A stretch of DNA of 32,534 nucleotides from Campylobacterota bacterium (lineage in GTDB: Bacteria > Campylobacterota > Campylobacteria > Campylobacterales > Sulfurimonadaceae): assembly GCA_034723735.1 (NCBI GenBank), contig JAYEPE010000299.1:1-32534 (forward strand), given 5' to 3'. The notes beneath the pieces are model-generated. The model searched no databases and was not told where the DNA came from. It saw only the letters and a list, made by a program, of their open reading frames with translations. A program made the translations under genes and the position numbers. Within the stretch, counting starts at the first letter, position 1. Each line of letters starts with the position of its first letter. Below, piece after piece: positions 129 to 30,121 of this stretch.

Positions 129-1054
129 TGAAAATAGTTATACTTGATGCCCTAACTTTTGGCGAAACACCTTTAGGTGCGTTTGAACAGTTTGGAGATG
201 TTGAGATTTATCAAACAACATCTCCTGATGAAACCTTAAAACGCATACAAAACGCAAATGTTATTGTTACTAACAAGGTTGTTATAACAGGTGAAGCAAT
301 GCTTGCATGCAAGGATTTAAAACTTATTTGTATCGCTGCTACGGGTATGAATAATGTAGATTTAGAGGCTGCAAAAGCGCATAATATTGAAGTTAAAAAT
401 GTAGCGGGATATTCAACAGACTCGGTCATTCAACATACCTTTTCTATGCTTTTTTATCTGATGGGACATTCTCGTTATTATGACGAGTATGTTAAAGATG
501 GCTCATGGCAAAAAAGTCCAGTTTTTACTAATGTCTCTCAGCCTTTTTTTGAAGTGAAGGGTAAAAAATGGGGAATCATTGGTCTTGGTGAGATTGGACA
601 AGGGGTTGGAAATATTGCTTCCTCCTTTGGTGCACAGGTGAGCTACTATTCAACTTCAGGACGTAACCGTAATAATGATTTTCAGCGCTGTAGCTTAGAT
701 GATTTACTAAAAGAGAGTGATATTATCTCTATTCATGCACCTCTTAATGAAGCTACATCAAATCTTTTAGATTATGAGCAACTCCTTACATGTAAAGAGG
801 GTGCTATCGTCTTAAATTTAGGTCGTGGTGGTATTATTAATGAAGATGCGGTAGCTAAAATCGTAGATGAAAAAGAGCTCTATTTTGGATTAGATGTTTT
901 AGAAAAAGAGCCAATGAAGCCAAATCATGCACTCTTACATGTAAGCCATAAAGAGCGACTATATATTACCCCTCATATTGCATGGACTTCAGTAGAAGCT
1001 CGTGAAAGATTAATTGCAATGACTATAGAAAATATAAGAGCTACTCAGAAATAA
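128..1054 (+). CDS. D-isomer-specific 2-hydroxyacid dehydrogenase (glycerate/hydroxypyruvate reductase-like)
   Basis: 308-aa ORF with the NAD Rossmann motif GIIGLGEIGQGVG. LGRGGIINE and TPHIAW are typical of the D-2-hydroxyacid dehydrogenase family. Confidence 0.85.
   Translation: MKIVILDALTFGETPLGAFEQFGDVEIYQTTSPDETLKRIQNANVIVTNKVVITGEAMLACKDLKLICIAATGMNNVDLEAAKAHNIEVKNVAGYSTDSVIQHTFSMLFYLMGHSRYYDEYVKDGSWQKSPVFTNVSQPFFEVKGKKWGIIGLGEIGQGVGNIASSFGAQVSYYSTSGRNRNNDFQRCSLDDLLKESDIISIHAPLNEATSNLLDYEQLLTCKEGAIVLNLGRGGIINEDAVAKIVDEKELYFGLDVLEKEPMKPNHALLHVSHKERLYITPHIAWTSVEARERLIAMTIENIRATQK
785..796. repeat. Iterated palindrome copy, CTTACATGTAAA (10-mer TTACATGTAA exact)
   Basis: Inside the dehydrogenase CDS, read as L-T-C-K. 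Confidence 0.95.
934..945. repeat. Iterated palindrome copy, CTTACATGTAAG (12/12)
   Basis: Inside the dehydrogenase CDS, read as L-H-V-S. Confidence 0.95.
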
Positions 1055-2480
1055 TGCAATTCTCTGAGTAAGCACTAGGAATATTATAACGTTTGAGTAA
1101 AGCATCCTGATGGGTTTTTGATGCGTTAGTATCTATAACAACTTGATAACCATCACTATCCTCAAGAGTGATAAATTCTTCTTTGCTGTGTTGCATAATT
1201 TGTGTAAATTGCTCAAAAGAGCGAATGGAGATCCCATTAACTTTTTCAATAGGCCAAAAACGCATATGATGATTCCCGCGATTACTATCATCTGCTAAAA
1301 CTTTAATTAATACAACAACCTCTTGCTTCTCTTTTGAAGGCCATTGTCTAGCAAAGAGACTCAGGCGCATGGGGATGTTTTTATTTCCTAGTAGATTATT
1401 GGTAAGTGGAGAGAAAAGATAACCCCCATATATATAGTATGTTGGCATCTTATCATATTGTAAAATTTTGACTAAAAGAAGTTCATTGACAGTGTTTTTT
1501 AATTGAAGTGAAATCTTAAGTTTTTTAGAATCACGTACAATATCAAGTTCTACTTTTTCACCCATCTGATGCTGGTCAATATAGTATTTAAACTCTGTAA
1601 ACTCATTCTTACGAAATTCTATAGTACCGTCATTTTCTATGTTATGTCCATCAATATCAGTGATAATATCACCTACTTTAAGCCCATGATGATTTTCATT
1701 ATAGGTGAGATAGGTAATAAGCTGACCCGTATCACTTCCTCGTACACCATAAAATTTCTGTATCGCAGCATTGTCAAGATTTTGAGTCACAACACCCAGT
1801 GAAGCAAATCCGTCGGTGGTGCCATCTTTGATATCTTCTAAAAAGTGTTTAATAATTGTCGTAGGAACAAGGTAGCCAATATTTTGTGCACGAGGAATAT
1901 TTTGCATCACCACACCAACAAGCTTGCCATCTGAAATACCAGGACCTCCGCTATTGCCAGGGTTAATAGCCGCATCAACTTGAATAGCCAAAAAAGGCTC
2001 ACCGCTATGTTTGTATCTAAAGTGCTCAACACGAGAGACAATTCCATCACTAATGCTCAGAGCACTTCCACCTGAGGGGAAACCATAGATAGAGATTTTC
2101 TGTCGCATAGTAGGGAGAGAATCAATCTCAATAGGAGTTATATCTTTAAAAAACTCTGCCTCCTCTACGCTTAAGAGTGCCAAATCAACCTGATGTGAAA
2201 CGGCAAGAACCTTGGCAATATAACGCTTGGTTTCCCCAAAGTGTTTAACCTCGATAAAGGTCTCATTAGCAACAACATGTGCATTGGTTAAAATACGATT
2301 ACCGCTAATAATAGAGCCAGAACCACTTGATCGATAGATAGAAGTATTCCATGGTTCAAGGTAGTTATAACCCTTATGCACAGTATAAATTTTAACAATG
2401 GCTTCTTTTATTTTATCTTCATTAAGCTCAGCAAATAGAGGTAGTATAAAGATACATGTAAGTAAAAAAATACGTATCAT
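1041..2480 (-). CDS. Secreted trypsin-like serine protease, S1C (DegP/HtrA-related), with a C-terminal PDZ-like region
   Basis: Signal peptide MIRIFLLTCIFILPLFA. Catalytic triad contexts are TNAHVV (His), DLALL (Asp) and GNSGGP (Ser). 479 aa. The 3' end overlaps the convergent dehydrogenase gene by 14 nt. Confidence 0.8.
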   Translation of the reverse strand: MIRIFLLTCIFILPLFAELNEDKIKEAIVKIYTVHKGYNYLEPWNTSIYRSSGSGSIISGNRILTNAHVVANETFIEVKHFGETKRYIAKVLAVSHQVDLALLSVEEAEFFKDITPIEIDSLPTMRQKISIYGFPSGGSALSISDGIVSRVEHFRYKHSGEPFLAIQVDAAINPGNSGGPGISDGKLVGVVMQNIPRAQNIGYLVPTTIIKHFLEDIKDGTTDGFASLGVVTQNLDNAAIQKFYGVRGSDTGQLITYLTYNENHHGLKVGDIITDIDGHNIENDGTIEFRKNEFTEFKYYIDQHQMGEKVELDIVRDSKKLKISLQLKNTVNELLLVKILQYDKMPTYYIYGGYLFSPLTNNLLGNKNIPMRLSLFARQWPSKEKQEVVVLIKVLADDSNRGNHHMRFWPIEKVNGISIRSFEQFTQIMQHSKEEFITLEDSDGYQVVIDTNASKTHQDALLKRYNIPSAYSENCIISE

Positions 2481-29192: not shown

Positions 29193-30121
29193 ACTGTTTT
29201 TTCAATAATGTAGCGTGGACGCTCTTTGGTTTCCATATAAATTTTCCCAATATACTCTCCTACGATACCGATAGAGAGCACTTGAATACCTCCAATAAAA
29301 TAGATAGGAAGTACAGTTGAAGCCCAACCAGGAACGGCTTCTTCACTAAACAGTTTGACTCCTAATACCCAAGTACTCATCATAAGTGTAGCTATGAAAA
29401 TTAAAAAACCTGTCGCTGTAATAAATCGTAATGGCATGACTGAAAAAGAGGTAACACCATCCCAAGCAAAAGAGAGCATTTTCTTGAGTGGATATTTGGA
29501 TTCACCTGCAAAACGTTCTGCGCGATCATAATAAACACTGCTGCTCTTAAATCCCACAAGAGGTACCATAGCACGAAGAAAAAGATTGACTTCTTTGAAT
29601 TTTTTTAGTTCTTCAATAGCACGACGACTCGTAAGGCGGTAATCAGCGTGGTTAAAAACAATATCAACACCCATAAGATGCATTAATTTATAAAAACCTT
29701 CTGCTGTAGCACGCTTAAAGGCTGTATCTGTTGTGCGTTCTTTTCTTACAGCGTAAACAATATCATTATTATCATTGTAGCTATCAATCATCTCTTCAAT
29801 AATCTCAATATCATCTTGCAAATCTGCATCTATACTAATAACGATATCACCTTCAACTGTGAAGAGACCTGCAAGTAAGGCGTTTTGATGTCCACGGTTT
29901 CTTGAGAGTTTGATACCACTTACATGTAAGTATTTAGATGAGAGTTCCTCGATGATACTCCATGTCTTATCTTTGCTTCCATCATCAACAAAACAGATAC
30001 GACTTGTATCGTCTATCTTTTTATTTGCTATGAGTTTTTCAAAAAGTGCTAAGAGACGTGATGAAGTTTCGTTAAGAACCTCTTCTTCATTGTAGCTAGG
30101 TAGAACGATAGTAAGTTGCAT
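29189..30121 (-). CDS. gtrB: GT2 polyprenyl-phosphate glycosyltransferase (GtrB/ArnC/DPM1-like)
   Basis: IVLPSYNEEE, VDDGSKDKT, SRNRGHQ, the DADLQD (DxD) motif and two C-terminal TM helices. The SD AGGA follows 9 nt after the gspF stop. Confidence 0.85.
   Translation of the reverse strand: MQLTIVLPSYNEEEVLNETSSRLLALFEKLIANKKIDDTSRICFVDDGSKDKTWSIIEELSSKYLHVSGIKLSRNRGHQNALLAGLFTVEGDIVISIDADLQDDIEIIEEMIDSYNDNNDIVYAVRKERTTDTAFKRATAEGFYKLMHLMGVDIVFNHADYRLTSRRAIEELKKFKEVNLFLRAMVPLVGFKSSSVYYDRAERFAGESKYPLKKMLSFAWDGVTSFSVMPLRFITATGFLIFIATLMMSTWVLGVKLFSEEAVPGWASTVLPIYFIGGIQVLSIGIVGEYIGKIYMETKERPRYIIEKTV
29919..29930. repeat. Iterated palindrome copy, CTTACATGTAAG (12/12)
   Basis: Inside the gtrB-like CDS (minus strand), read as L-H-V-S. 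Confidence 0.95.

Follow-up and report, generated by a model that had tools for sequence, protein, structure and literature searches.

A palindrome of the HIP1 and DNA-uptake-sequence class, hyper-abundant in genomes and patchily distributed among Sulfurimonadaceae

To our knowledge, hyper-abundant short words are known from three settings only: Chi-type sites, the uptake sequences of Neisseriaceae (DNA uptake sequence, DUS) and Pasteurellaceae (uptake signal sequence, USS), and the highly iterated palindrome (HIP) HIP1 of cyanobacteria, the last reportedly described by Robinson in 1995. The function of HIP1 has only now, after 30 years, been tied to methylation-dependent transformation, and its cause is still debated. 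Both HIP1 and alternative HIPs occur in cyanobacteria (PMC4390886, PMC5861425); HIP1 has been attributed to methylation-directed repair or gene-conversion bias (Elhai 2015, PMC4390886) and to a role in nucleoid or chromosome structure or in regulation (Xu et al. 2018, PMC5861425). When HIP1 is methylated, transformation of cyanobacteria increases by as much as >100-fold (bioRxiv 10.1101/2024.09.10.611283), and HIP1 abundance co-varies with the DNA-uptake machinery (bioRxiv 10.64898/2026.06.24.733823). Campylobacter jejuni imports only DNA that is methylated at the palindrome RAATTY (CtsM; Beauchamp et al. 2017, as cited in PMC10046745). The HIP and uptake-sequence classes are now drawing together. 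Here we analyse a contig of 32,534 nucleotides (JAYEPE010000299.1, referred to as the window) in which the palindrome YTTACATGTAAR is a hyper-abundant genome word of the HIP1 and DNA-uptake-sequence class. New here are a word of this class in a new phylum, its unusually fine-grained patchiness and a dialect with a spacer of another length.

Exact search finds TTACATGTAA, the 10-mer within YTTACATGTAAR, 16 times in the window. Dinucleotide-preserving shuffles give 0.04 copies (sd 0.20, maximum 1; none of 100 reaches 16) and an order-2 Markov model gives 0.075. Nine of the copies are the full 12-mer CTTACATGTAAG (0.003 expected), and GCTTACATGTAA or its complement is present nine times. The enrichment is ~200-400-fold, and TTACATGTAA is by far the commonest 10-mer of the window, at 492 copies per Mb. 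A preliminary description of the window had put the expectation at 0.1 and the enrichment at about two orders of magnitude; the computed excess lies above that estimate. Its count of nine full 12-mers was reproduced, as were 15 of the 16 positions it listed, but the copy placed at 24353 starts at 24343. Independent assemblies from JGI, ENA, NCBI and Logan show the enrichment as well, as does the complete genome of an isolate, and the copies often occupy orthologous positions; an assembly artefact is therefore ruled out.

The word is a perfect palindrome and its extensions are likewise palindromic. Outside the 10-mer, the copies carry information only at positions -1/+1 (Y/R) and weakly at -2/+2, with none beyond +/-2; the unit is therefore YTTACATGTAAR, about 12 bp. 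For the half-sites of the window clade, -1/+1 is Y/R in 89%, and -2/+2 reads 'not A / not T'. A repeat search of the window detected no longer family containing TTACATGTAA, in agreement with the earlier statement that the copies lie outside recently duplicated DNA. Imperfect copies are rare. The window holds only five with one mismatch, and in related loci just 6 one-off copies deviate within the inner eight positions, against 88 perfect copies. The overall ratio of one-off to perfect copies is ~0.5, and this mismatch spectrum does not separate a HIP model from a USS model.

As described earlier, 13 copies lie within 10 unrelated open reading frames (ORFs) on both strands, and three are intergenic. 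The host ORFs encode a 2-hydroxyacid dehydrogenase, a DUF4178 protein, NspC, a short-chain dehydrogenase (SDR), an HD hydrolase, an MMPL protein, a product without assignment, a PA14 protein, a PMT protein and a GT2 glycosyltransferase. Only two reading frames are used, TTA-CAT-GTA (L-H-V, nine copies) and xTT-ACA-TGT-AAx (L-T-C-K, four copies); the third contains a TAA stop codon and is unused in the genes of the window. When synonymous codons were shuffled within each gene, with the proteins kept, 0.97 +/- 0.91 copies remained (maximum 5 in 1000) against the 13 observed, so the codon-preserving check proposed in the preliminary description gives an observed/expected (O/E) ratio far from 1. 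Shuffling of whole codons gives 0.055 genic copies. The encoded peptides are themselves enriched in the window, LHV ~8-fold (12 vs 1.6 expected) and LTCK ~200-fold (4 vs 0.02). The force therefore acts on the DNA, and the protein sequence is dragged along. Across 16 motif-bearing loci (236 kb, 90 copies, 381 per Mb), 63 copies are genic (46 in the LHV frame and 16 in the LTCK frame) and 27 are intergenic. YTTACATGTAAR acts at the DNA level and is neither a mobile element nor a peptide motif.

Comparison with relatives shows how the copies arise. At one orthologous position, the motif lineages read GGC TTA CAT GTA AGC (G-L-H-V-S), where GGT CTC AAT GTA AGT or similar (G-L-N/K-V-S) is found in more than 25 lineages without the motif. 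In NspC, a conserved enzyme, A-L-Y-[K/E]-S-F of distant homologues is S-L-H-V-S-F in the window clade, and H-I-T-[R/K]-K is A-L-T-C-K. At the site in the HD-domain hydrolase gene (18460..18469), two other lineages read F-L-P-S and F-L-P-Q. We considered insertion of a 12-bp unit and rejected it, since the orthologous alignments show substitutions and contain no 12-bp insertions (no four-codon gaps); a few intergenic alignments have small indels. The near-matches at orthologous positions, together with the NspC replacements, show that copies are created in place by point substitution, in part non-synonymous, at proto-sites that already resemble the word.

Once formed, copies outlast the surrounding sequence. 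When loci are aligned in pairs, the partner preserves 52 of 102 sites, and the rate for all 10-mers in those alignments predicts 19.4; the pairs are directed and lack phylogenetic independence. Four of the six sites of the cultured Hydrocurvibacter mobilis HSL3-2 are common to locus L101 at 78% nucleotide identity. Between L093 and L101, both differences are C-to-T at the CATG cytosine. The copies are not spread evenly, and here the preliminary description needs correction: intergenic DNA is ~4.6-fold denser per base, with 27 of the 90 copies in the 8.5% of sequence that is non-coding. Several conserved copies occupy spacers at promoters or between operons, such as those downstream of rnj and upstream of thyX.

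The RNase J of the window is 80% identical to that of Sulfurimonas species and 90-96% identical to metagenomic relatives, and the source of the window is an uncultured member of the Sulfurimonadaceae. All close relatives that were fetched are motif-rich (L162, 3 copies in 12 kb; L163, 4 in 8.5 kb; L164, 9 in 12 kb; L165, 10 in 22 kb). L164 and the RAYT locus L014 (6 copies in 11 kb) belong to one metagenome-assembled genome (MAG), GCA_947311765.1. A second motif-rich group comprises L093, L096, L101, L147 and L159. The word is also present in H. mobilis HSL3-2 (CP147917.1; 6 copies in 22 kb vs 0.03 expected), a type strain in pure culture with a complete genome (PMC12403661). Motif-less relatives of similar GC content hold 2 copies in 77 loci (1.01 Mb) against 63 in 175 kb of motif-bearing DNA. 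The carriers span several lineages at 72-96% RNase J identity, patchily and with 'dialects' of flank and spacer; the word is not species-specific, contrary to what had been proposed. L147 has 5 copies and its nearest neighbour L149 has 0 in 13.7 kb, although the two are 95% identical in RNase J amino acids and, over 7.8 kb, 80% identical in nucleotides; L149 lacks every L147 site. In the loci anchored on RNase J, only ksgA-rnj(-thyX) is syntenic with the window, a stretch without motif copies. Gain and loss were therefore compared among the relatives and, for NspC, at the protein level. Gene order is very fluid in general; between the window and L162-L165 and L082, only ksgA-rnj plus thyX is syntenic at 93-96% RNase J identity. 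The searchable literature gave no account of the motif in a relevant context, nor any for Campylobacterota or Sulfurimonas that dealt with HIP-type or uptake sequences, in keeping with the earlier view that the word is undescribed. CATG is not among the m5C motifs reported for S. denitrificans (PMC8112702).

Sister lineages have words of their own. L146 carries (C)TTACGTAA(G), whose 8-mer core is present 11 times in 21.8 kb (0.35 expected); this dialect, CTTACGTAAG, has the half-sites CTTAC|GTAAG as in YTTACATGTAAR, with the central AT dropped. L111/L112 carry TATCATGATA (7 copies vs 0.08 expected; the 8-mer core is present nine times), and L126 carries CTCACGTGAG (3 vs 0.02). The flanks are T/A instead of C/G in L083, L084, L218 and L005. 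These alternative palindromes occur in several reading frames and in spacers, they have related half-sites (CTTAC|GTAAG, TATC-AT-GATA), and they centre on TACGTA, TCATGA and CACGTG. In a separate case, L087 has AGAATCGATTCT three times within 600 bp (18559-19169), possibly an operator rather than a HIP. A further candidate, TTCACGTGAA, was rejected as another HIP; it equals parS (GTTTCACGTGAAAC), of which two to four copies lie near ksgA-rnj (L113 1708/5147, L126 5420/8910, also L118, L124, L142 and L222). These suggest that the ksgA-rnj locus is near the replication origin in those genomes.

Density, O/E ratio, genic and intergenic placement, substitution origin, conserved sites and alternative palindromes all agree with the HIP1-like highly iterated palindrome of the preliminary description, and this looks like a second, independent case of the HIP1 and DNA-uptake-sequence phenomenon. 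Its exclusion of a gene-family remnant, a regulon and a classical repetitive extragenic palindrome (REP) also stands: the host genes are unrelated and on both strands, 70% of the copies are genic, and the RAYT gene of the window has different repeats of its own (see below). For the cause, we rank first the earlier suggestion of an uptake or self-recognition tag, possibly joined with that of a methylation-linked HIP, and give it a probability of roughly 0.4. A lineage-specific, probably horizontally exchangeable dimeric protein would read the ~12-bp word, most likely in DNA exchange. The word would mark 'self' DNA in natural transformation, at uptake or at recombination, and the signal may include a methylated CATG core, as for CtsM and RA(m6A)TTY in C. 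jejuni and for methylated HIP1. Incoming fragments that carry the word would be fixed preferentially, and this molecular drive would accumulate it wherever the sequence tolerates it. We infer both the binding factor and its step of action.

Several observations weigh against this uptake or self-recognition tag. No ORF with an m6A/m4C or m5C signature of a DNA methyltransferase was detected by regular expressions for the catalytic motifs in the 236 kb of motif-bearing DNA (~1-10% per genome). No motif-enriched virus was found in IMG/VR with the GC-flanked 14-mer GCTTACATGTAAGC only, a weak negative in which 51 single hits were returned. In favour of the tag, the window encodes GspF-like, GspG-like and 200-aa prepilin-type (pseudopilin) proteins; GspG attains the equivalog cut-off, and the GspF-like protein scores 293 bits against a cut-off of 424. 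The window contains neither comEC nor dprA, however, and its GspF and GspG genes might be those of a conventional type II secretion system. The searchable literature holds no documentation of competence in Sulfurimonadaceae. Conservation of sites above background is equally expected for directly selected binding sites. Lastly, DUS and USS are non-palindromic, whereas the motif is a perfect palindrome.

A wider proposal is more doubtful than the tag itself. Campylobacterota would have evolved genome-wide uptake or self-recognition sequences independently, a third origin, in this case palindromic and possibly read by methylation, with exchangeable dialects (YTTACATGTAAR, CTTACGTAAG, TATCATGATA) whose determinant hops between Sulfurimonadaceae lineages. 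If so, each hop would rewrite thousands of positions, residues of conserved enzymes included, within the divergence time of sister genera. HIP1 and YTTACATGTAAR would then be two instances of one mechanism, and the 30-year-old question of HIP1 would be open to comparison.

Methylation might instead suffice without any role in uptake. An orphan methyltransferase or a restriction-modification system would then target the CATG or ACATGT core, and a methylation-directed bias in repair or gene conversion would both restore and create the word, in line with the tie between HIPs and methyltransferases drawn by Elhai 2015 (PMC4390886). The core is a classic Type II target, and the sister palindromes likewise centre on Type II targets (TACGTA, TCATGA, CACGTG). 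The rigidity of the inner eight positions and the two C-to-T differences between L093 and L101 at the CATG cytosine point the same way. We nevertheless consider this unlikely. The specificity spans 12 bp, beyond usual methyltransferase sites, and L146 keeps the CTTAC/GTAAG half-sites and changes the centre, which a dimeric binder fits better. Campylobacterota also commonly lack MutS1/MutL mismatch repair. The 236 kb of motif-bearing DNA show no methyltransferase signature, and outside the motif the carriers have CATG and ACATGT at about the expected frequency (O/E 0.86 and 0.97).

We also think it improbable that the copies are directly selected binding sites for an abundant dimer that organises the nucleoid, structures the chromosome or regulates globally. 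A palindrome suits a dimeric binder, and the sites are conserved above background; the intergenic excess and the conserved copies in promoter and inter-operon spacers (downstream of rnj, upstream of thyX) also speak for it. Against this, the spacing of the copies in the window is irregular (149 to 6712 bp), and 70% of the copies are genic and cost substitutions to His and Cys. Presence of the word flips at 95% RNase J identity, and sister lineages have different words, which an architectural housekeeping role would hardly explain.

A restriction-related selection, in which the copies serve as decoys or as protected sites and the extended palindrome is read by an endonuclease, either resident or phage-borne, is very improbable. 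The palindromic, Type II-style core and the patchy lineages resemble restriction-modification systems. Restriction targets are normally depleted, whereas this word is amplified 200-fold, and we know of no precedent for a restriction-selected amplified palindrome. The preliminary description had regarded such palindromes as avoided. In the carriers, CATG and ACATGT are near expectation outside the motif, and there is therefore no sign of restriction pressure; the host depletion of a Type II target is not seen. In motif-less relatives the ratios are 0.70 and 0.49. Genes for an endonuclease or a methyltransferase were not seen in the 236 kb. Separately, 48 motif-less RNase J loci (566 kb) are strongly depleted in many palindromes of 4-6 bp (O/E: ACGT 0.37, TACGTA 0.18, GGCC 0.27, TCGA 0.39, ACATGT 0.49), which is consistent with heavy restriction-modification pressure in Sulfurimonadaceae.

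One gene absent from the preliminary description suggests a transposase. ORF 3857-4615 encodes a RAYT-type HUH tyrosine transposase with a fused C-terminal helix-turn-helix (Pfam Y1_Tnp, E=2.5e-16; NCBIfam REP_Tyr_transpos, 72.5 bits against a cut-off of 80). With a Fic gene (4608-5330), it forms a two-gene cassette on the minus strand, with one motif copy on either side. The word could then be the footprint or target of this or another IS200/IS605-like enzyme, as a miniature REP or a TTAC-type target. IS608 of Helicobacter targets TTAC, and the two copies lie in a direct repeat of 17-18 nt, CA(Y)TCTTACATGTAAGCT, which includes the palindrome and brackets the cassette (3792-3809 and 5555-5572). 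We find this hardly credible, and the association was rejected because the repeats of the cassette are different ones and the motif is not carried along with it. The inverted repeats GGGGGTCAGGACATAAATATAAGTTT (3821-3858, 5373-5410 and 5471-5498 in the window) accompany every homologous cassette examined; those of L218-L221 and L001 have the same ends in different genomic contexts, and no motif adjoins the cassettes of L218-L221. Of 80 RAYT loci in other genomes, just 3 are rich in the motif, and the closest (67% identity) has no copy. The copies also come from substitution and not from insertion, and most are genic.

The cassette itself looks mobile or REPIN-like. Its family is widespread in Campylobacterota MAGs, with lineage-specific repeats of the GGGGTCAGG type. 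The 17-mer of CA(Y)TCTTACATGTAAGCT occurs identically in the 2-hydroxyacid dehydrogenase gene (930-946); the repeat could be an insertion duplication, recombination at the word, or coincidence. Short tandem GAGAGGGTGT(CAG) units (5437-5480) lie directly upstream of one cassette repeat, and L014 and L218 have comparable runs, TCTGAGGGGTCGCG and AAAAGGTGTCA, ahead of their upstream repeat. CRISPR-like arrays (period ~66, repeats of 31-36 nt) lie directly upstream of RAYT-family genes in Sulfurovum and Arcobacteraceae MAG contigs (L050 464-4487, L064 746-5296, and L051).

Chance, compositional bias, a selected peptide motif, recent duplication and an assembly or adapter artefact are refuted by the shuffles (none of 100 reaches 16; about one copy when codon-aware), the use of two frames plus intergenic sites, the unrelated flanks, and the enrichment in independent assemblies and a finished isolate genome.

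The copies in the window are listed in Table 1. The 3' half of the copy at 21095..21104 merges into an AAGGA, Shine-Dalgarno-like stretch. The one-mismatch copy at 9853..9862 is the closest match that the NspC protein permits, because the invariant H174 (CAY) forces C at the last position.

Table 1. Exact and one-mismatch copies of the palindrome in the window, with their gene context and encoded residues
Copy	Position	Location	Encoded residues or remark
Exact, cTTACATGTAAa	786..795	2-hydroxyacid dehydrogenase gene, 128-1054(+)	L-T-C-K
Exact, 12-mer CTTACATGTAAG	935..944	2-hydroxyacid dehydrogenase gene, 128-1054(+)	L-H-V-S
Exact, 12-mer	3797..3806	Intergenic	4 nt upstream of Mem_trans ORF (2875-3792, -); 50 nt downstream of RAYT stop codon
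Exact, 12-mer	5560..5569	Intergenic	Between divergent Fic (4608-5330, -) and DUF4178 (5618-6250, +)
Exact, 12-mer	6326..6335	DUF4178 gene, 6247-7485(+)	L-T-C-K
Exact, 12-mer	9499..9508	nspC, 9343-10482(+)	S-L-H-V-S-F
Exact	9980..9989	nspC, 9343-10482(+)	A-L-T-C-K
Exact, 12-mer	11748..11757	Short-chain dehydrogenase gene, 11561-12271(+)	L-T-C-K
Exact, 12-mer	18460..18469	HD-domain hydrolase gene, 17837-18937(-)	L-H-V-S
Exact	21095..21104	Intergenic	11 nt upstream of MMPL start codon
Exact	21359..21368	MMPL gene, 21116-23407(+)	L-H-V-I
Exact	22376..22385	MMPL gene, 21116-23407(+)	L-H-V-K
Exact	24343..24352	Unassigned ORF, 24311-24862(-)	L-H-V-K
Exact, 12-mer	25410..25419	PA14-domain ORF, 24906-25499(+)	L-H-V-S
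Exact	26609..26618	PMT-family glycosyltransferase gene, 25496-26956(+)	L-H-V-K
Exact, 12-mer	29920..29929	GT2 glycosyltransferase gene, 29189-30121(-)	L-H-V-S
One mismatch, ATACATGTAA, outer base changed	2452..2461	HtrA-like gene	L-T-C-I
One mismatch, TTACATGTAC	9853..9862	nspC	At conserved G-L-H-V-H motif
One mismatch, ATACATGTAA, outer base changed	11864..11873		
One mismatch, TTGCATGTAA	14738..14747	YcaO gene	
One mismatch, TTGCATGTAA	26165..26174	PMT gene	F-L-H-V-K

Some neighbouring features were recorded alongside. A protein with a Phage_rep_O-like N-terminus (23404-24309) and the unassigned ORF 24311-24862 lie between the MMPL and the PA14/PMT genes and are possibly the remnant of an element. 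ORFs 24875-25354(-) and 24906-25499(+) overlap almost fully, and only the plus-strand ORF has a Pfam match (PA14). The gap between nspC and a PNP_UDP_1 gene holds a bacterial small signal recognition particle RNA (Rfam RF00169, 60 bits; 10777-10874, minus strand). Among viral sequences, the GC-rich contig IMGVR_UViG_3300020042_006565 (L171, L202, L213; 55 kb, GC 0.58-0.60) has three separate copies of GCTTACATGTAAGC. For DNA of this composition, chance would not be expected to give that number, which is unrelated to the Sulfurimonadaceae signal.

The word offers an independent replicate for asking whether such palindromes are tags for uptake or recombination, by-products of repair, or architectural sites. 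Its patchiness and several dialects allow the causal gene to be mapped by phylogenetic co-occurrence, and the cultured carrier HSL3-2 makes the mechanism directly testable. The case also shows how strongly a DNA-level force can act over codon usage, even on residues of conserved enzymes. Adding or methylating the word would be a practical handle toward transforming intractable sulfur-oxidising Campylobacterota.

Among known systems, parS, matS, SlmA and Noc sites share with the motif a perfect palindrome, there of 12-16 bp and bound by dimers. They number a few to tens per genome, whereas the motif projects to ~1000 copies in a 2-Mb genome and extends into genes. REPs, imperfect hairpins of 20-40 nt, lie outside genes and flank their own RAYT gene. 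The motif resembles REPs and the REPIN-RAYT systems in being a short palindromic repeat with a RAYT-like gene beside two copies; it differs in its 12-bp length, its largely genic placement and its origin by substitution, and in that the RAYT gene has other repeats and few RAYT loci are motif-rich. CtsM with RA(m6A)TTY is the system of the same phylum, and the window has GspF-like, GspG-like and pseudopilin genes; the 6-mer RAATTY owes its frequency to composition, and no drive toward excess is known for it.

The likeness to DUS and USS is closer. They too are words of 9-12 bp, present about once per 1-3 kb and with lineage dialects (PMC3868556), and they show a non-coding excess, tolerated frames in genes and distortion of the proteome (PMC2817400, PMC1939737). 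Build-up by point mutation at near-matches (molecular drive) is a further parallel. In the H. influenzae USS, the one-off to perfect ratio is near 0.5, close to the value for the motif. Uptake bias and a receptor (ComP) have been shown by experiment there, whereas the motif is known from sequence alone.

The closest match is HIP1. Both are perfect palindromes with palindromic extensions and a rigid centre, lie within and between genes, are made by substitution and have conserved sites. The motif reaches 380-490 copies per Mb with an O/E of ~200-400, and HIP1 300-2700 per Mb with a 15-300-fold excess. For both, relatives that lack the word carry other palindromes, and the core is of the Type II restriction-modification style. 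The motif is not HIP1 in the strict sense, as sequence and phylum differ: HIP1 is GCGATCGC, an 8-bp word with a CGATCG/GATC core in cyanobacteria, whereas the motif is AT-rich, 10-12 bp long, has a CATG core and belongs to Campylobacterota. It is also far patchier, flipping between lineages with 95% identical RNase J, and one of its dialects, CTTACGTAAG, drops the 2-bp centre and keeps the half-sites.

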